From Vicinamibacteraceae bacterium (lineage in GTDB: Bacteria; Planctomycetota; Phycisphaerae; Phycisphaerales; UBA5793), in contig WYBR01000040.1 in the NCBI GenBank assembly GCA_011525805.1, positions 112,407-176,406 on the forward strand: DNA of 64,000 nt, read 5' to 3'. Below, in pieces: positions 3,461-58,496 of the stretch. Below the pieces are notes generated by a model. That model saw only the letters and a program-made list of their open reading frames with translations, did not search any database and was not told where the DNA came from. Made by a program: the position numbers and the translations under genes. The first letter of the stretch is position 1. Each line of letters begins with the position of its first letter.

Positions 3461-5131
3461 CTATCCCTTCTCCCCGAGGATGAGCGCCGCGAGCCGCTCC
3501 GGACTGCCGGCTTCGATGTGGTCCGGCACTTCCTGGCCGGTCGTGATGAACGAAAGTTCCTTGCCGGCCTTGCGCATGACGTTGATCAGCACGCCGAGGC
3601 TCACCGCCTCATCCGTCTTCGTGAAAATGACGCGGTCGGCCTCAACCGGCGAGAACCGCTCGATGGTGCGCATGAGTACCTGCTCGCTGCACGTGCTGGC
3701 CAGGACCAGGTGCACCTCGTGCGGGTCTGCGGCCTTGGCAAACGCCCTGATCTCTTCGAGACGAGCACCATCGTTGGGCGACCGGCCCGCGGTGTCAATC
3801 AGGATCACATCGCAGTGTTCCAGCGACCGGCACGCCTCGGCCATCTCCGCGGGGGTCAGCGCCACTTTCAGCGGAAGGCCGATGATGTTCGCGTACGTCC
3901 GCAACTGATCGACGGCGGCAATTCGATACGTGTCGGTCGTGATCAGGCCGACGCGGCGTTGGTGGCGGAGTTTGTACGCGGCAGCCAGTTTCGCCACCGT
4001 CGTCGTCTTTCCTACCCCCGTTGGCCCGACAAGCGCCACCGTGAACGGCCGGCCGTCCGACGGACGCACGAGCATCGAATCGGGCGCCACCGGCACCAGG
4101 GCGGCGAGGTGTCGGCGGAAACTCGCCCGCACCTGCCCCGCATCCGCGAGTTGCTCTTCGCGCAGATCGCGCCGAACGCGGTCGCACAGGTCATCGGCGA
4201 TCTCCTGCGCCACCTCGTTCTGGATGAGGCCGACATACTCGTTGAAGAGCGCCTCGGGCATCGCGGGCTGAAGCGTACCGGCCTGTCGCTGAAGCACCTG
4301 ACCGACCATCTGCTTGAGCGCGGCGATCTCGGTCTGAAGGGAAGGCGCGGGAGCGCCGGCTTGCGGCGCAGCGCCATTCCTCCGCCGCGCGGAACGGGAA
4401 TCCTTGCGGCGGCGCGGCGAAGGCTGGGCCGGGGAGGCTTCCGCTGCCTTCGTCGAGGGGGATTCCTCCCCGATACTCGCAGCGACTCGATCGATCGCCG
4501 CCCGCGATGTGATCGGCGGCGCCTCGGTGGTGGTGTCGGCAACGGGCGGGGGCGCCGCGCTGATTCCGCCGGAATCGACCGCAAGCACGAACCTCCGCGC
4601 GACGGGCGATGCGGAGGTCACAGGGGAACGCCCCGGCCGCGCCGTTCGGGCGTCTGCGGCGGTGTTGGAGGGCGGAGCGACCGCTTGGCGCGTGGGGTGG
4701 GCACGATTCCGTTTAAGCAACGGCGCGGGATCGGGCGCTGGCGGCGGGGTCGTCGCGGCAGGGGCCTGCGGCTGCCGCGGCTTCGATTCCGCAGCGGCCA
4801 CGAGCCGCCGCCGCTGCTGTTCGGCGAGCGCCAGGGCGACGGCCGCTTTCCGCGCCGGATCGTTCGATACGGTCGTCTGCGGCGCGGCCGCTGCGGCCGG
4901 GATCGGGGTTGAATTCGGGGCCGGCGGAGAGTTCCGCGCTGCCAAGCTGGGACGCTGGCGCGGCGCCGGAAGAGAAGCCGTCACTTCGAAGACCGTCTGC
5001 CCGCCCACGCCCAGCACGCCGCCGCGGCGGAAGGTGCGCGAGTGGAGGATCACGGCGTCGTCGCCGAGATCGGCCTTGATGCGCTCGAGTGCCTCGTTCA
5101 GAGACAGTGCGTGATAGGTTCGAAGGTTCAA
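3461..5131 (-). CDS. flhF: SRP-type GTPase FlhF, flagellar placement
   Basis: N-terminal B-domain MNLRTYHALSLNEALERIKADLGDDAVIL. G-domain motifs are VALVGPTGVGKTTTVAKLAA, DTAGRS and FTKTDEA. A long Pro/Ala-rich linker is present. Confidence 0.9.
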   Translation of the reverse strand: MNLRTYHALSLNEALERIKADLGDDAVILHSRTFRRGGVLGVGGQTVFEVTASLPAPRQRPSLAARNSPPAPNSTPIPAAAAAPQTTVSNDPARKAAVALALAEQQRRRLVAAAESKPRQPQAPAATTPPPAPDPAPLLKRNRAHPTRQAVAPPSNTAADARTARPGRSPVTSASPVARRFVLAVDSGGISAAPPPVADTTTEAPPITSRAAIDRVAASIGEESPSTKAAEASPAQPSPRRRKDSRSARRRNGAAPQAGAPAPSLQTEIAALKQMVGQVLQRQAGTLQPAMPEALFNEYVGLIQNEVAQEIADDLCDRVRRDLREEQLADAGQVRASFRRHLAALVPVAPDSMLVRPSDGRPFTVALVGPTGVGKTTTVAKLAAAYKLRHQRRVGLITTDTYRIAAVDQLRTYANIIGLPLKVALTPAEMAEACRSLEHCDVILIDTAGRSPNDGARLEEIRAFAKAADPHEVHLVLASTCSEQVLMRTIERFSPVEADRVIFTKTDEAVSLGVLINVMRKAGKELSFITTGQEVPDHIEAGSPERLAALILGEKG

Positions 5132-9394: not shown

Positions 9395-9530
9395 GTCAAG
9401 GCATCAGGACATCAAGGCATCAACGCATCAAGGGACCGAGGTTTTGGTTAGCCGCCCCTCGGGGTCATGAGCCTCGGGGTCGAATGACGACGCGGAGGCT
9501 CTGCGCAGCGGATCGCTTCGGCGCTCCGCG
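9395..9530 (-). repeat. bipartite intergenic element, copy E (core plus 8-nt periodic TTGATGCC-type tract), sense = minus strand
   Basis: Minus strand reads ...CCGCTGCGCAGAGCCTCCGCGTCG... (21/24 identical to the core of the other copies by manual alignment). About 50 nt later it reads CCCTTGATGCGTTGATGCCTTGATGTCCTGATGCCTTGACG, ending 14 nt before the fliR ATG. It fills an unusual 155-nt gap between fliQ and fliR. Confidence 0.55.
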
Positions 9531-9790: not shown

Positions 9791-9849
9791 GGAGCGCCTC
9801 CTGAGAGCATCCCACGAATCGCAGAGCCTCATCGTGGGGGTTGACGGTC

Positions 9850-10713
9850 TTATCCGAACCCGGCGCCGAGGGCCATCGCGGCCGCGGAGTACACATCCGT
9901 TCCCGGCGCTGTGCCGTGCAGCAGGTTGCCCACCAGCAGCGTCCAGCCGTCCACGAGCACGAAGAGCAGCAGTTTGAACGGCAGCGAAATGAGCACCGGC
10001 GGCAGCATGAGCATGCCCATCGAGATGAGCAGGCTCGAAACGACCATGTCGATGATCAGAAACGGCAGGTAGATGCGAAAGCCGATGAGAAACGCCACCT
10101 TCAGTTCGCTCAGGATGAACGCGGGCACGAGCGTGAGCATGTCCACGTCGTCGTAGGTCAATTCCTCGGGCCTGGACGTGTCCACTCCCCGGTAGTCGAG
10201 GATCACGTAGACCCCGTCCCAGTTGTCCGCCGCGTCGATTTGCGCGAACATGAAGTCGCGCAGCGGGTCCTTGGCGCGATTCCAGACGTCCAGTTGGCTC
10301 TGCACGTTCTCGTCGCCCTGCGTGTAGGGGACGTACGCCTCGTTGTAGATGCGCGTGAAGGTCGGCTCCATGGCGAGTACGGTCATGAACAGCGCCAATC
10401 CGACGATGACCTGGCTCGGCGGAAGCGTCGCCGTGCCGATCGCCTGCCGCACCAGGCTCAGCACGACGACGAAGCGCGTGAAGCAGGTGCACATCATCAG
10501 GATCGACGGGGCGATCGTCAGCACGGTGAGGAGAATGAGAACATTGAGCGAGGCGCTCAACCCCCCCTCGAAGCCGGGAATGGCCTCCGAGGCGTTTTCG
10601 AGCATGCTCACCGGGTTGAGCGCTGCTTCGCCCGGCTGCGCCAGCGCTGCGCCCGGCGCGAGGGCAGCGCCCGCGATGGCGAAGAACATGAGGAGCCGGT
10701 TGATGCGCCTCAT
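9850..10713 (-). CDS. fliP: flagellar export apparatus protein FliP
   Basis: Signal-like N-terminus, then LNVLILLTVLTIAPSILMMCTCFTRFVVVLSLVRQAIGTATLPPSQVIVGLALFMT. ATGA overlap with the fliO stop. Confidence 0.95.
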   Translation of the reverse strand: MRRINRLLMFFAIAGAALAPGAALAQPGEAALNPVSMLENASEAIPGFEGGLSASLNVLILLTVLTIAPSILMMCTCFTRFVVVLSLVRQAIGTATLPPSQVIVGLALFMTVLAMEPTFTRIYNEAYVPYTQGDENVQSQLDVWNRAKDPLRDFMFAQIDAADNWDGVYVILDYRGVDTSRPEELTYDDVDMLTLVPAFILSELKVAFLIGFRIYLPFLIIDMVVSSLLISMGMLMLPPVLISLPFKLLLFVLVDGWTLLVGNLLHGTAPGTDVYSAAAMALGAGFG

Positions 10714-11502: not shown

Positions 11503-12048
11503 TCAGTTCTCACCGCCCTCATCGCCGCGCGAGAAGATTTCGCTGATGCGCACGCAGAAGGTGTCGTTGAGGACGAGCACCTCGCCGCATGCCACGTGCC
11601 GGTCGTTGACGTATACATCGACGGGATCGCCCGCGAGTTTGTCGAGTTCAACCACGCTGCCCTCGTTGAGGCGAAGCACGTCCTCGACGAGCATCCTGGT
11701 CCGGCCCAGTTCAATGCGGACGTTCAGGTTAACCTTCGAGAGCAGGTCGATTCCGCTGACGGGATGATCGACCGACCGGTCGTCAAACTCGGGCAGGTCG
11801 AAGGCCGGCGGGGCGTCCGCGGGCGTCTCCGCGCCGGCGCGGGTGGACTGGGCCTCGCGCTGGATGTCGTCGACGGCGCGGCGCGCCGTCTCAAGCGCCT
11901 CCTGCGGATCGGCGGCGGGCGGCTGCGGCGCGCCGCCCGCGGCGGCGTCGGGAGGCTCGGCGGCTCTCGGAATGGATCGTTCGGAGTTCATGCGCGGCGT
12001 CGGCGGAGCGGCCCATCCCTCGGGTCGCCCCACGCTTATCGGATACAT
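11503..12048 (-). CDS. fliN: flagellar motor switch protein FliN
   Basis: C-terminal SpoA domain VNLNVRIELGRTRMLVEDVLRLNEGSVVELDKLAGDPVDVYVNDRHVACGEVLVLNDTFCVRISEI. N-terminal ~95 aa are low complexity; start uncertain. Confidence 0.9.
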   Translation of the reverse strand: MYPISVGRPEGWAAPPTPRMNSERSIPRAAEPPDAAAGGAPQPPAADPQEALETARRAVDDIQREAQSTRAGAETPADAPPAFDLPEFDDRSVDHPVSGIDLLSKVNLNVRIELGRTRMLVEDVLRLNEGSVVELDKLAGDPVDVYVNDRHVACGEVLVLNDTFCVRISEIFSRGDEGGEN

Positions 12049-12125
12049 CTGCGCGGCCTCTGCAACATCCGCGCACAGCGCAAAAAGTGCCCGAGGCCGC
12101 AGTGCCGGCCGGATCGACCAGGCGG

Positions 12126-14283: not shown

Positions 14284-14355
14284 CTCTGGGCCTCCCGTTC
14301 GTCGCGAAACCGCGCGCGGATCGCGCGCTCCCGCCGCGCGGCGGGCCTGCGGGTG

Positions 14356-14383
14356 CTATCGACCCGCGAACGCGACGACTTGA
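14356..14383 (-). promoter_or_regulatory. candidate sigma-28-type promoter upstream of motA (TCAA-N16-GTCGATAG)
   Basis: Minus strand reads CTCAAGTcgtcgcgttcgcggGTCGATAGC in the 151-nt flbD-motA gap. Compared with TAAA-N15-GCCGATAA, the -10 matches 6/8 and the -35 matches 3/4. Spacing is 16. The -10 ends 73 nt upstream of the motA GTG. Confidence 0.3.
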
Positions 14384-14434
14384 GTCCCATACTCCCGCCG
14401 CAGCCGCGGCGGCGCATCCTCCTTCGGCCGACGC

Positions 14435-19656: not shown

Positions 19657-19681
19657 GATGGAGTCCCCGGAGGAACGCGTT

Positions 19682-19745
19682 GAGGCATCAATGCATTGAG
19701 GGGCCGATCAGCCGCGGCCCGGAGGCTTTGCCCACGGGAGCGCGG
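19682..19745 (-). repeat. bipartite intergenic element, copy D, sense = minus strand
   Basis: Minus strand reads CGCGCTCCCGTGGGCAAAGCCTCCGGGCCGCGG (30/33 identical to copies B/C). It continues ...CCCCTCAATGCATTGATGCCTCAA, ending about 25 nt before the ylxF-like ATG (19656). Confidence 0.6.
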
Positions 19746-19762
19746 CGCGTACGCACGGTTGA

Positions 19763-25095: not shown

Positions 25096-25202
25096 GCCTC
25101 AACCGGCGTCGCGTGTTGTGCCCGGCGCCCGATGGGCCGAGGGCGTCTTCAGGTTCGGCCGCCGGCATCCTCCTGACGCGGGCGGTCGAACGCGGCTCGC
25201 GT

Positions 25203-25529
25203 CTAAACGCGAATCTGCTTCATCTCGTTGTATGCATCCATGACCTTGTTGCGCACTTGAAGGAGCATCTGGAAGGCGATGTCCGCCTTGCGCTGGGCGG
25301 CGAACACCGCGTCGGGATCGTTGCGCTGCCCCGTGGCCAGGTCCTCCACGGCCTGCGTCGTCTCCTGCTCGAGGCGGTTCACTTCCCGCAACTGATCGAG
25401 CAGCATGTCCTTGAACGCGCCGACGCTGCCCGCCTCCGTCCCCGCGGCCGGCTGAACCGGGCGCTGGATCGGCGAGGCGCCGGCAGATTGAATGAGTCCA
25501 AGAGGGTCAGGCACGCGTGTTCTCCGCAA
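25203..25529 (-). CDS. fliE: flagellar hook-basal body protein FliE
   Basis: C-terminal FliE signature FAAQRKADIAFQMLLQVRNKVMDAYNEMKQIRV. Start is uncertain: the track start is TTG, and an in-frame GTG lies at 25514. Confidence 0.85.
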   Translation of the reverse strand: MRRTRVPDPLGLIQSAGASPIQRPVQPAAGTEAGSVGAFKDMLLDQLREVNRLEQETTQAVEDLATGQRNDPDAVFAAQRKADIAFQMLLQVRNKVMDAYNEMKQIRV

Positions 25530-25710
25530 GCGGCTTCATCGGCCGATCTCCGATCCGGGCTTCAACGGCCGCCGACGGCCCAAACACAGCCGCAGGCGAG
25601 GCGATCAACATCCGGCGACTCCAACCCGACCTCCTCGATCCCAAGCCCCGAATCTCAAATCTCGAGTTTCAGACCTCAGACCCCAGGCTCCAAACCCCAG
25701 GCCCCACACC

Positions 25711-26112: not shown

Positions 26113-26231
26113 GGGAGGTCGGGGGTCGGGGGCTGAGGCGGATGGCAGGTGGTGGTGGGCAGGAGGCACGAGGCATTAGGCACTGGGGTCAGGTGGGGTT
26201 CCTTTGGCGTTCACTCGTGCGGTCTTTCGGG

Positions 26232-45511: not shown

Positions 45512-45587
45512 GGTAGGGGGTTGGGGCTTGAGGCTTGGGGCTGGCGCCGCTTGCGGCATCGCGGGTCGAGCGCTCCATTGCCCCCGG

Positions 45588-45662
45588 CGCGCTCCCCTGC
45601 GCAAGGCCTCCGGGTTGCGGCGAAACGATCCTCCGACGCCTTGATCTCCCGATGCCTTCCTC
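45588..45662 (+). repeat. bipartite intergenic element, copy A, sense = plus strand
   Basis: CGCGCTCCCCTGCGCAAGGCCTCCGGGTTGCGGCGAAACGA (31/33 identical to copies B/C over the core), then CGCCTTGATCTCCCGATGCCTTCCTC. The core ends 77 nt before the ribH ATG. Confidence 0.65.
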
Positions 45663-53010: not shown

Positions 53011-53160
53011 GAAGTGGGGCGGTTCCGTTGGGGTGAGGGCAATGATATGCGGTGCGGCAGTGCCGACTCGAAACGCAGTGCATTCGTACTCATGGCTAGA
53101 CTTCACCGCGTTCACTGTGTTGTGACGCGGACGCTGATTCGGGAGTCCCATCGCACTTGC

Positions 53161-53194
53161 CGCGCTCCCCTGCGCAAAGCCTCCGGGTCGCGGC
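53161..53194 (+). repeat. bipartite intergenic element, copy B (core only), sense = plus strand
   Basis: CGCGCTCCCCTGCGCAAAGCCTCCGGGTCGCGGC, identical over 34 nt to copy C. Ends 20 nt before the glycosyltransferase ATG (53214). Confidence 0.65.
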
Positions 53195-53213
53195 TAACCG
53201 GCTTGTCCCCCCC

Positions 53214-54536
53214 ATGCGCATTTTGCACGTTTCAACTCGACTGATCCTCGGCGGCTCGCAGGAGAACACCGTTCTCTCCTGCGAGGGGCAGGCGCGCGCG
53301 GGGCATGAAGTGCATCTCGCCTTCGGGCCGATCTACGGGCCGGAGGGGTCGCTGCTCGAGCGCGTCGAGGCGTTTCGCGTCGCGGAGAATGAAGACGGGC
53401 GAGACGCCCATTCCACCTCCCGTTCGGAGAAGGGAGACGGGCGAGACGCCCGTTCCACCGGCCCATCCGCCGCCTGCTCCACCGCCCGTCCCACCGCCCG
53501 TTCCACCCGCATCACCACGCACATCCTGCCGCACATGGTGCGCGAACTGGCGCTCGTGAAGGACCGCAAGGCCTTCGGCGAGTGCCGCCGCCTCATCGCC
53601 CGACTTGACCCCGACATTGTTCACACGCACTCCTCCAAGGCGGGCATCCTCGGTCGTGCCGCCGGCTGGGCCGAGGGGGGTCGGCAGGGGAAGCGCGGCA
53701 TCGTCCACACCATCCACGGCCTGCCCTTTCACCCCTATGAAAAAGGCTGGCGCAACCTCATCTACATCAAGTCGGAGCGCTTCGCCGCGCGGCGATGCCA
53801 CCGCATCATCACTGTCTGCGACGCCATGCGCGACCAGGCGCTCGCCGCCGGCGTCGGCACGCCTGATCTCTACACCACCGTCTACAGCGGCATGGAGACG
53901 CAGCGGTTTCTCGAACCCGGCGTCACGCGCGACCAGGCGCGGAATCGCCTCGGCATCGAGCCGGAGGATTTCATCATCGGCACCGTCGCGCGCCTCGCCG
54001 AACTCAAGGGGCACGACGACCTCCTCGACGCGATCGGACCGGTGATGCGCACGAAGCCGAACTGGAAGATGCTCTGGGTCGGCGATGGTTGGTGGCGCGA
54101 GCGCTTGCTGAGCCGCGTCCGCGAACTCGGCTTGGAGCAGCAGGTCATCACGACGGGGCTGGTGCCGCCCGAGCAGGTTGCGGAACTGATGCGCGCGATG
54201 GATCTGCTGGTGCACCCGAGTTACCGCGAGGGCTTGCCCCGCACGGTTCCGCAGGCGCTGCTGAGCGATGTGCCTGTGGTGGTCTACGACCTTGACGGCG
54301 CACCCGAAGTGTGCATTGACGGGCAGACGGGCCGCCTCGTTCCCGCCGGCGACCGCGCCGCCCTGCGCGAAGCGATCGAGTGGATGTCCGACCACCCCGC
54401 CGAGCGCGCAGACATGGCGCAGCGCGGGCGGGAGATGTGCCGTGAGCGATTCAGCGTCGAGATGATGATTGCCGATCTCCAGGCCGTGTATGAGCGGGTG
54501 CTTGAGCGGATTCGAGGGCGATGGATCTCGAGGTAG
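53214..54536 (+). CDS. GT4-family (GT-B fold) glycosyltransferase
   Basis: ATG 53214 (MRILHVSTRLILGGSQENTV). Contains PDIVHTHSSKAGILGR and the C-terminal E-x7-E region SYREGLPRTVPQALLSDVPVVVYDLDGAPEV. Confidence 0.85.
   Translation: MRILHVSTRLILGGSQENTVLSCEGQARAGHEVHLAFGPIYGPEGSLLERVEAFRVAENEDGRDAHSTSRSEKGDGRDARSTGPSAACSTARPTARSTRITTHILPHMVRELALVKDRKAFGECRRLIARLDPDIVHTHSSKAGILGRAAGWAEGGRQGKRGIVHTIHGLPFHPYEKGWRNLIYIKSERFAARRCHRIITVCDAMRDQALAAGVGTPDLYTTVYSGMETQRFLEPGVTRDQARNRLGIEPEDFIIGTVARLAELKGHDDLLDAIGPVMRTKPNWKMLWVGDGWWRERLLSRVRELGLEQQVITTGLVPPEQVAELMRAMDLLVHPSYREGLPRTVPQALLSDVPVVVYDLDGAPEVCIDGQTGRLVPAGDRAALREAIEWMSDHPAERADMAQRGREMCRERFSVEMMIADLQAVYERVLERIRGRWISR
53388..53520 (+). repeat. 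~130-nt repeat cassette inserted in frame in the glycosyltransferase gene
   Basis: Two copies of GACGGGCGAGACGCCC(A/G)TTCCACC (53394..53417 and 53436..53459; hairpin ACGGGCG-aga-CGCCCGT). Followed by tandem CCACCGCCCGT-type units (53479..53509). Translated as EDGRDAHSTSRSEKGDGRDARSTGPSAACSTARPTARSTRITT. Confidence 0.65.
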
Positions 54537-57155: not shown

Positions 57156-58351
57156 GGCCGGGCTCCGTCGCCGCCTGTTCCACTGCCGCCCGCTCCATTG
57201 CCCGCCGCCGCGCCGACCTGGTGCTCATAGACCGCCAGCACGATGAGCATGACGATCACCTGCGCCCCGGCCAGCGCCGCCATCCACTCCTCCGTAAGGC
57301 GGCCGAGAAAGATGCCCGTCAGCCCCGTGGCGAGCGTGATGCCGTAGACCACGGCCAGCATGCCTCGCGGACTCAGGCCGCGCTTCACGAGGCGGTGCGA
57401 GAAGTGCTGCTGGTCGCCGACCATCGGGTTGCGCCCCTGGCGGAGGCGGATCGTCACCACGCTAAGCAGATCATACAGCGGGACGGCGAGGACGATGAGC
57501 GGCATGAAGACGCCGTACCACGCGCTCGTGCGATCGGCATCGATATACGTCGTGCGGATGGTGAGAAACCCGAGCAGGAAACCAACGACGAGCGACCCGC
57601 CGTCGCCCATGAAGATGCTCGCGGGTGGGAAGTTGAAGCACAGGAAGCCGAGCAGGGCGCCGACGAGCAGGGCGAGCGTCGCCGCGACGAACCACTGCCC
57701 GTTGAGCAGCGCCGCCGCGAGAAACAGCGACGCCGCGATGCACGATACGCCGCCGGCGAGGCCGTCCATGTTGTCCATGAAGTTGATCGCGTTGGTCACC
57801 ACCACCAGCCACACGATCGTCAACACGATCGAAGGCCACGGCGCGATCGCCGCCAGCACCGGCGCCTCGTCGAGCAGCGTCAGCAGGCGGCTGGACTGCT
57901 CCAGGTTGTTCGCCAGGTCGAAGGGGAAGAGCACGACGATGGCCGCAAGGATGAACTGCACGCCGAGTTTGACGCGCGGCCCGAGGGGGCGGCGGTCGTC
58001 GATCAGCCCCATGACGTGCATGGCGAGCAGCGCCAGCGCGAGCGTGAGCGCCATCGGCGTGCGCGCGGCAATGCCCGGCAGGTGCTCTTCGATGGCCGGT
58101 GCTAAGTCGGTCAGCGTTTCAACCGGCACGATCCGCAGGAGCAGCAGGCCGAGCAGCAGCGGCCCCAGCACGGCCGAGGCGATGGCGATCCCGCCGATGT
58201 TCGGCACGCGGCGCAATTCGCGCTTCACGTGACCCGCCGCGCCCGGCGAATCGAGTTGCCCGAGTCGAAGCCCGACGCCGCGCAGCCACCACGTCAGCGG
58301 CCACGCCAGCGCAAAGGAAGCCGGGATCAGGCAAAGGACCGCCGCAATCAC
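57152..58351 (-). CDS. polyprenyl-phosphate N-acetylhexosamine-1-phosphate transferase (MraY/WecA family)
   Basis: NAINFMDNMDGLAGG and FMGDGGSLVVGF motifs, about 10 TM segments, GTG start. ATGA-type overlap with the ligase-like gene. Confidence 0.85.
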   Translation of the reverse strand: MIAAVLCLIPASFALAWPLTWWLRGVGLRLGQLDSPGAAGHVKRELRRVPNIGGIAIASAVLGPLLLGLLLLRIVPVETLTDLAPAIEEHLPGIAARTPMALTLALALLAMHVMGLIDDRRPLGPRVKLGVQFILAAIVVLFPFDLANNLEQSSRLLTLLDEAPVLAAIAPWPSIVLTIVWLVVVTNAINFMDNMDGLAGGVSCIAASLFLAAALLNGQWFVAATLALLVGALLGFLCFNFPPASIFMGDGGSLVVGFLLGFLTIRTTYIDADRTSAWYGVFMPLIVLAVPLYDLLSVVTIRLRQGRNPMVGDQQHFSHRLVKRGLSPRGMLAVVYGITLATGLTGIFLGRLTEEWMAALAGAQVIVMLIVLAVYEHQVGAAAGNGAGGSGTGGDGARP

Positions 58352-58366
58352 GGGGCCATTGTAGGG

Positions 58367-58442
58367 GATCGAGGCATCGAGGCATCAAGGGTTGAAGGGA
58401 GTCGTTTCGCCGCGACCCGGAGGCTTTGCGCAGGGGAGCGCG
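58367..58442 (-). repeat. bipartite intergenic element, copy C, sense = minus strand
   Basis: Minus strand reads CGCGCTCCCCTGCGCAAAGCCTCCGGGTCGCGGCGAAACGA, then CTCCCTTCAACCCTTGATGCCTCGATGCCTCGATC, and ends 15 nt before the WecA-like GTG (58351). The sequence CCCCTACAATggccccGTG follows. Confidence 0.65.
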
Positions 58443-58496
58443 TCGAGTGGCGAAGCGATCCCCGGATCGGCAAGAGCAGCGAGACGCGAATCGTCG

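Follow-up and report, generated by a model that had tools for sequence, protein, structure and literature searches.

A short intergenic repeat present five times in a Phycisphaerales genome probably belongs to a dispersed REP/REPIN-like family of Planctomycetota

The stretch of 64,000 nucleotides analyzed here (the window; contig WYBR01000040.1, positions 112,407 to 176,406, assembly GCA_011525805.1), which is named Vicinamibacteraceae bacterium and placed by the Genome Taxonomy Database (GTDB) in the Phycisphaerales, UBA5793, harbors a short sequence that recurs upstream of start codons within and outside a flagellar gene cluster. A preliminary description of this DNA regarded the sequence as a bipartite element and left two possibilities, a lineage-specific repeat of the repetitive extragenic palindromic (REP) or miniature inverted-repeat transposable element (MITE) type with orientation bias, or a shared promoter or 5′ leader module. 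The question raised by the locus is, hence, whether the repeat serves the genes it precedes or is a dispersed sequence in its own right. The analysis indicates that the five sites probably belong to a dispersed, non-autonomous repeat of Planctomycetota that resembles REP/REPIN elements, best read as a new family which in Phycisphaerales carries an unusual polar, slippage-prone microsatellite tail.

The repeat is real and had been spotted correctly. The core is 32–37 nt long, comprises CGCTCCCCTGCGCAAAGCCTCCGGGTCGCGGC followed by T(A)AAC or GAAAC, and is present in five copies within the 64 kb. A search of the window with the 33-mer CGCGCTCCCCTGCGCAAAGCCTCCGGGTCGCGG, with 100 shuffles of the window as background, returned four matches with up to three mismatches, namely, 19712–19744 (−, three mismatches), 45588–45620 (+, two), 53161–53193 (+, none), and 58410–58442 (−, none), while the shuffles returned zero. 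These sites, designated D, A, B, and C, respectively, are also the longest inverted and direct repeats of the window. A profile hidden Markov model (HMM) trained on 137 distinct copies, all from other genomes, recovered these four and the fifth site, E, with E-values of 6.6e-15 (B), 3.3e-14 (C), 1e-11 (A), 2.8e-9 (D), and 7e-6 (E); the sixth-ranked match had an E-value of 0.034, so that the window contains exactly five significant copies. The recurrence of the core at five sites and the identity of B with C, both claimed in the preliminary description, were thus borne out.

The exact consensus is found at sites C and B. The core of site C (CGCGCTCCCCTGCGCAAAGCCTCCGGGTCGCGGCGAAAC; 58404..58444, −) lies between the genes for gamma-glutamyltranspeptidase (GGT) and a Glycos_transf_4 (WecA/MraY-family) protein, and that of site B (53159..53200, +), which ends in GGCTAACC and has no tandem tail, lies between the divergent genes of UvrA and a glycosyltransferase of the GT1 family, the start codon (ATG) of the latter being 19 nt away. 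Site A (45586..45627, +) separates a divergent UbiA-family gene and ribH, and site D (19705..19746, −) is placed between fliJ and a gene for a 241-aa protein without a Pfam match. At site E, located between FliQ and FliR, the 5′ two-thirds of the core (GCGATCCGCTGCGCAGAGCCTCCGCGTCG; 9488..9518, −; HMM model positions 2–32) and the displaced 3′ end (GCGGCTAACC; 9446..9455, −) are split by a 32-nt insert (9456..9487, −), which is an internal duplication of two similar ∼16-nt units, TCATTCGACCCCGAGGC and TCATGACCCCGAGGG; apart from this split, the core reads as complete. The Pfam assignments agreed with the flanking genes as originally named. All five copies are singletons, and inverted pairs are absent from the window. 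Six further assemblies of the species carry site A unchanged, and an additional ∼3.6 kb of the window's own genome contained no additional copy.

The second part of the element is a tandem repeat located downstream of the core on the same strand. The tail of site C (58364..58403, −) consists of a spacer and an 8-nt tandem tract (CCTTGATG CCTCGATG CCTCGATC CC), of which Tandem Repeats Finder (TRF) called 2.9 copies at 58368–58390, and that of site E (9396..9433, −) is an 8-nt array of 4.8 copies (TRF), the end of which lies 15 nt before the ATG of fliR. Weak tails of two to three degenerate units are found at site A (CGCCTTGATCTCCCGATGCCTTCC; 45637..45660, +; not called by TRF) and site D (CCCCTCAATGCATTGATGCCTCAA; 19680..19703, −; three mismatches to a two-unit probe). 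This two-unit probe gave seven matches in the window against 0.05 expected, all adjoining cores C, D, and E. The tract reported at four of the five sites is therefore clear at C and E, degenerate at D and A, and missing at B. As anatomy, the bipartite description was correct: TRF analysis of 494 kb showed that most arrays of the tail type follow a core on its 3′ side, at a distance of 5–45 nt and with the same strandedness. About half of the Phycisphaerales-type singletons carry such repeats, with units of 7–8 nt. The tail lies on the GGCTAAAC side of the core and is pyrimidine-rich, with the general form (YGATGCCT)n-TTCCCC-(AGTGCCT)n, in which TTCCCC often follows the first array and the second array is only sometimes present. 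The 5′ flank of these singletons is unconserved, and their core ends in GGCT(A/G/C)AAC or GGCGAAAC. Exceptions to the link between core and array are the site E orthologue of L218, where only the core remnant CGCTCC is left, and a contig-end case (L140); arrays of the tail type without a core were also observed at 26150–26185 of the window, at 4140–4177 of L214, and at 2555–2589 of L175.

Coreless intergenic tandem families with 7-nt units were noted as well, namely, GGGGCTT/GGGGCCT (GCCCCAA on the other strand) and TGCCTAA/TGCCTCG, at 25640–25710, 45516–45542, and 26150–26185 of the window and in L219 (1396–1417), L217 (6693–6711), and L168 (13445–13466). They occur in either orientation relative to genes and resemble the short tandemly repeated repetitive (STRR) heptamers of cyanobacteria.

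All five window cores point at start codons, as had been described, at distances of 19–107 nt, and this arrangement speaks for a shared promoter or 5′ leader. In that case, the core would be a target of a regulator or sigma factor and −35-like boxes would come from the TTGATG-type repeats, the two together driving the gene downstream and creating internal promoters in the flagellar cluster. Sites A and B are, however, uninformative in this respect, since a core with divergent genes on its two sides points at a start codon either way; orientation can be judged at C, D, and E alone, and the chance of three out of three is 1/8. All copies were classified with a codon-usage gene caller that reproduces the expected genes of the window. 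Of ∼41 Phycisphaerales-type singletons, 19 have the tail side (GGCTAAAC) directed toward a gene start and 22 toward a gene end. They comprise 10 copies between co-directional genes in the same orientation, 10 in the opposite orientation, 9 between divergent genes, 6 between convergent genes, and 6 with one neighbor missing, all of the last facing a gene end. By intergenic type, the 35 copies with a full classification divide into 20 between co-directional, 9 between divergent, and 6 between convergent genes, which matches the background of intergenic regions in the same loci (122, 37, and 35, respectively), and only 2 of 68 singletons lie in the interior of a predicted gene. The orientation bias seen in the window is thus gone outside it, and in related genomes the copies show the random orientation and the equal frequency downstream of genes that had been named beforehand as the mark of a generic REP. 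Roughly half of the copies in related genomes adjoin the 3′ end of a gene on the other strand, which argues against a promoter or leader. Long-array composites divide in the same manner, those of L014, L017, L019, L034, L062, L078, and L125 running into the stop codon of such a gene. Nor do two copies account for the only large gaps in the flagellar run, as had been stated, since other gaps of at least 100 nt are present at 11992–12125, 14284–14434, 25096–25202, 25515–25710, and 26113–26231.

Three genomes (L029, L141, and L175) have copies at one shared convergent-gene junction and two (L052 and L167) at another, in each case just past the stop codon of a gene on the opposite strand. This marks some of the insertions as old or recurrent.

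The promoter signals are of particular relevance at site C, where the element lies directly upstream of a −10 box, TACAAT (58358–58363), that is followed after 6 nt by the GTG start (58349–58351, −) of the WecA/MraY-family gene. Composites elsewhere (L113 and L183) likewise end right at a TACCAT/TACAAT-N6-ATG box, in favor of a promoter function. Yet the arrangement CTACAAT-N6-GTG is conserved in the window and in L214, L215, L216, and L217 (at approximately position 10000 in the last four), and these four orthologues carry no element there; the box hence belongs to the gene and lies outside the element. The TTGATG of site C is 19 nt from TACAAT, and no sigma-70-type promoter was called at any of the five sites. 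In Phycisphaerales-type loci, TAnnnT hexamers peak sharply 5–6 nt upstream of predicted starts (21 of the 270 genes, most other offsets having ∼2), which suggests that leaderless transcription may be common in this group. Such a leaderless promoter geometry is known in other phyla. Two further readings were applied to the reverse strand of the array, a sigma-54 promoter (TGGCAC-N5-TTGC) and a CsrA sponge (ANGGA), and were rejected by eye as the geometry of both is off consensus.

Orthologous junctions were compared as well. Syntenic loci in relatives, which are labeled Phycisphaerales or UBA5793 in public records, were reached via homologues of the WecA-family protein and the 241-aa protein, with 69–88% protein identity. 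The intergenic region of site C, between GGT and WecA, is 145 nt in the window and 60, 42, and 43 nt in L214, L216, and L217, respectively, all lacking the element. Both core and tail are absent from the orthologous intergenic regions of L214, L215, L216, and L217, the site being filled in the window only. As core, spacer, and array are absent together, they represent one ∼85-nt block from the same insertion. Site B is retained in L215 at 15269 (−) with two substitutions, a point in favor of a promoter or leader. Site D is empty in L218 (88% identity; 30 nt) and in L221, where FliJ overlaps the next gene; in L220, it holds a core with four mismatches and a 7-unit array, and in L219, a possible remnant. 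The site D copies of the window and L220 have no derived substitution in common. Site E is empty in L220 (27 nt) and L221 (FliQ and FliR 12 nt apart), contains an uninterrupted core with three mismatches in L219, and has a core cut down to CGCTCC in L218; the array units number 4.8 in the window, ∼7 in L218, ∼1 in L219, and none in L220 and L221. Core and array are, therefore, both dispensable, separately losable, and fast-changing. The differing unit numbers at orthologous sites indicate that the tail most likely expands and contracts by replication slippage.

These junctions tell against a shared promoter or leader, since relatives do without the element where genes overlap or are tightly spaced, and the two parts are lost separately (an array without a core in L218 and a core without an array in L219). 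With the −10 box owned by the gene and no sigma-70-type promoter called, the module creating internal flagellar promoters that had been put forward did not hold up, and this explanation appears quite improbable.

In L215, the site C orthologue (∼9840–10090) contains a different insert made up of the unrelated hairpin repeats GTCATGCCCGCGAAGGCGGGCATCCAG and GGATTCCCGCCTGCGCGGGAATGACG. The region upstream of the −10 box has, therefore, been struck independently by two repeat families.

The core was also considered as a structured RNA, i.e., a cis-regulatory leader or small RNA with the core as its hairpin and the repeats as protein-binding units. The hairpin predicted in the preliminary description does exist, as the core folds into a bulged hairpin of 6 + 3 bp (−18 kcal/mol, z = −2.2), and the TGCC(U) repeat units could in principle serve as protein-binding motifs. 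However, the stem does not appear to be maintained. Covariation among 56 distinct variants was 0.039 as compared to 0.041 in the shuffled control, in agreement with the lack of compensatory changes noted earlier, and a double change was found in a single instance. The outer three pairs of the stem, which depend on non-conserved flanks, form in 45–59% of the variants, with the 3′ partner columns invariant or nearly so. What is conserved is the core sequence, not the helix. The window gave no Rfam match at the gathering score, and the E-value mode, applied to site C and one palindromic copy, gave sub-threshold generic matches only, none near the gathering score. No intrinsic terminator was called at the cores, where the hairpin is followed by TAAAC or GAAAC without a T-run. 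Taken with the random orientation relative to transcription, these results render a structured RNA highly improbable.

To describe the distribution of the core beyond the window, an exact-pattern scan covered one genome per species (GTDB representatives) and gave 87 stretches, of which 80 are listed. Among the listed loci, ∼65 belong to the metagenome-assembled genome (MAG) "Planctomycetaceae bacterium MP5IB2.78," ∼11 to the Phycisphaerae MAG Bin_17, three to the Phycisphaerales MAG PDA_C_MAG.101, two to a Gemmatales MAG, and one to another Planctomycetaceae MAG, the taxon names being those of the submitters. Even the parts of the core left free in the pattern (GTCGCGGCTAAC) were almost invariant, and the core is often the same letter for letter across Planctomycetota MAGs and metagenome contigs. 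A metagenome scan yielded dozens more copies from soil, sludge, freshwater, and marine samples; the pattern used was short and produced many false positives in coding sequences, which were removed by demanding the full core with no more than 4–6 mismatches. One match was obtained among 2.9 million viral contigs, a short paired copy between two phage genes, and blastn against plasmids found no copy. Identical copies in MAGs labeled Phycisphaerae, Planctomycetaceae, and Gemmatales and in one phage contig are at odds with the lineage-specificity proposed earlier. The core is identical in the window and MP5IB2.78, while eight orthologous proteins of the two, five of them from the flagellar/sigma-factor region, are 34–60% identical (FlhA 50%).

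At 560–690 of the phage-like contig (L223; IMGVR_UViG_3300047160_018780), a single copy lies between two co-directional genes and is accompanied by a partial inverted partner of 12 nt, GTTAGCCGCGAC; such a phage could be a vehicle for horizontal spread.

In MP5IB2.78, most copies occur as inverted pairs, 55–77 nt apart from start to start, and 55 such pairs were found in this MAG and several metagenome contigs. The paired form is a perfect or near-perfect palindrome of 112–150 nt with the core as 37-nt terminal inverted repeats (TIRs), outer ends GTTAGCC...GGCTAAC, and no tail in MP5IB2.78; one 112-nt palindrome of this MAG folds into a near-perfect hairpin of −109.8 kcal/mol. Target-site duplication was evaluated by comparing 12 nt outside each end of 42 pairs. 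A 2-nt direct repeat flanked 1 of 42 pairs and a 1-nt repeat 15 of 42, the latter judged near chance without a control, and the palindrome extends 2–3 nt outward of the ends (CCC/GGG or TTG/CAA). The pairs are, therefore, without target-site duplication.

In L174 (∼1840–2600), two inverted copies lie ∼700 nt apart, with outward flanks near-identical over the 85 nt shown, which is due to a large inverted duplication or else to an artefact of the assembly.

A high copy number, intergenic placement without preference of orientation or context, gain and loss at orthologous junctions, decayed next to consensus-perfect copies, and pairs lacking target duplication together make a dispersed non-autonomous repeat the probable explanation. 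The REP/MITE-like option of the preliminary description was thus supported as a dispersed repeat, while its lineage-specificity and orientation bias failed. Old copies decay by substitution, internal insertion, and truncation, with consensus-perfect copies alongside them in each genome. Presumably, new copies continually arise from a conserved master sequence and the core acts as the recognition end for a trans-acting enzyme, with the tail lengthening or shortening by slippage during replication. Owing to the lack of target duplications in palindromic copies and the presence of hairpin ends, the enzyme would most likely be an HUH/Y1 transposase of the RAYT (REP-associated tyrosine transposase) or TIRYT type rather than a DDE transposase. 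Effects on neighboring genes would be incidental, as at site C, where the insertion appears to have replaced the −35 region of a native leaderless promoter.

REP and REPIN elements are mobilized by RAYT (Y1 HUH) transposases (PMC3116915, PMC3337134), and a cross-phylum survey including Planctomycetes reported GTAG- and CGTC-tagged REP families with RAYT genes in members such as R. baltica (PMC3733652). The present repeat is similar to these in being a short imperfect palindrome (32–37 nt) with a strictly extragenic location and a copy number in the tens to hundreds. Its copies likewise occur as singletons and as inverted pairs forming long hairpins without target-site duplication, cluster tightly around a master sequence, and decay with age. 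The same survey described a GGGGWSAS motif common to the TIRs that flank tyrosine-transposase genes in TIRYT "TIRtrons" (PMC3733652). Dispersed repeats serve as TIRs in both cases, and the reverse strand of the core (GGGGAGCG) agrees with the motif at seven of eight positions, a short and imperfect match; unlike in TIRtrons, the repeats did not flank any tyrosine-transposase gene in the loci surveyed.

Several observations weigh against the assignment to REP/REPIN-like repeats. Among 12,319 ORFs in 1.6 Mb of loci around the copies, phmmer found no match to E. coli RayT at E ≤ 10, clustering of 394 proteins encoded near copies gave ordinary paralogue families only, and in the sampled loci inverted copies enclosed neither a transposase-like gene nor any other coding sequence; the genes between or beside nearby copies are housekeeping or hypothetical, e.g., those of a cyclophilin-type isomerase, UvrC, Ndk, MurB, and Ddl, as judged by eye from translations. 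The outer tag differs from the classical GTAG, or CGTC, of REPs, being GTTAG in MP5IB2.78 and GTTTAG, GTTCAG, GTTGAG, TTTCG, or ATCAG in window-type copies. Furthermore, the Phycisphaerales form is asymmetric, and its polar microsatellite tail is unusual, no such tail being known from REPs. The descriptions of REPIN-RAYT systems speak of vertical inheritance and lineage-specificity, in contrast to a master common to deeply diverged genomes. Transposition would be deduced from the comparison of presence and absence, and a local orientation bias in this species is possible in the window's own genome outside the 64 kb. Finally, orthologous cores are far better kept than their unalignable flanks (26 of 32 positions at site D between the window and L220), which could reflect selection, gene conversion, or independent insertions at a hot spot.

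Selection at each locus is what a host-function site would predict, whether for a nucleoid-associated protein, gyrase, or partition-type factor, or as an orientation-independent hairpin for transcription or RNA stability, on the model of the roles proposed for E. coli REP/BIME elements. Such a site would account for the better conservation of orthologous cores, for the identity of 32–37 nt letter for letter between genomes whose proteins have diverged as far as described above, and for the junctions shared by L029, L141, and L175 and by L052 and L167. Identity and core conservation are, however, also explicable by recent independent insertions at hot spots. Moreover, all junctions examined can do without a copy, some lineages have split or truncated copies, the density of copies is uneven (five in the 64-kb window against 0–1 per 21 kb in relatives), the stem is unmaintained, and the hairpin has neither a T-run nor a called terminator. 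A host function is, hence, considered unlikely.

Other known repeats share single features with the family. DDE-derived MITEs are represented by, e.g., Correia, ERIC, and IS630-type elements. The MP5IB2.78 form resembles them as a non-coding, high-copy palindrome of ∼112–150 nt with 37-nt TIRs, and departs from them in the near-complete lack of 2-nt target-site duplication (1 of 42); in addition, no parent insertion sequence (IS) with the same ends was found in the sampled loci, and the singleton form is single-ended. The STRR heptamers of heterocystous cyanobacteria are intergenic arrays of variable number, with several unit families per genome. Intergenic 7–8-nt arrays of variable number and several unit families are found here too, with the difference that one array family is bound in fixed polarity and spacing to a 32–37-nt core. 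To our knowledge, a function or mechanism is known neither for the STRR heptamers nor for these arrays.

Other candidates were rejected. Integron attC sites, which are imperfect palindromes in cassette arrays with RYYYAAC as the 5′ and GTTRRRY as the 3′ boundary, have their ends in the opposite order to GTTAGCC...GGCTAAC, and the copies here are dispersed rather than arrayed. Clustered regularly interspaced short palindromic repeats (CRISPR) do not fit, as copies are inverted pairs or singletons without regular spacers. An autonomous element at L064, suggested by an inverted pair 2 kb apart, proved spurious, the second copy having six mismatches and lying inside an ORF resembling murD by eye. 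The target logic of ISDra2-type elements (TTGAT) was dismissed by eye, as the TTGAT units are on the wrong side of the end.

A bolder extension of the REP/REPIN-like reading is that the Phycisphaerales form represents an undescribed asymmetric mobile element, with a recognition hairpin at one end and a self-generated polar tandem tail at the other. It would be moved between Planctomycetota classes by an enzyme, possibly on phages, and would insert preferentially just upstream of leaderless −10 boxes, thereby rewiring promoters. This is rather unlikely as a whole.

Characterized non-coding or mobile DNA is almost nil in Planctomycetota, particularly in Phycisphaerae, and the repeat offers an easily recognized intergenic annotation marker. 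The longest ORFs at sites A and B run through it, and recognizing the repeat avoids such mis-calls; in the window, the sites are not to be labeled as a regulatory motif of flagellar or cell-envelope genes. Its presence or absence is usable as a marker of strain and species history. A tail placed beside a promoter, as at site C, could possibly act as a local mutational switch. Among REP-type repeats, it is unusual for one 37-nt master to be common to deeply diverged genomes, and this points toward a partner enzyme that would be either horizontally moving or extremely conserved.

Two other features of the window were observed. At the end of the flagellar cluster, tandem paralogous genes of the sigma-70 family are located at 41–874 and 1051–1905 (−), 1010 nt apart, with repeats at 79–240/1089–1250, 524–595/1534–1605, and 604–730/1614–1740, and both were called Sigma70_r2/r4 in a contig of the same species (L224). 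Inside the GT1 glycosyltransferase gene downstream of site B, a 12/24-nt tandem repeat at 53447–53518 (+) codes for a segment of low complexity (…DGRDAHSTSRSEKGDGRDARST…) that is inserted between the two enzyme halves.

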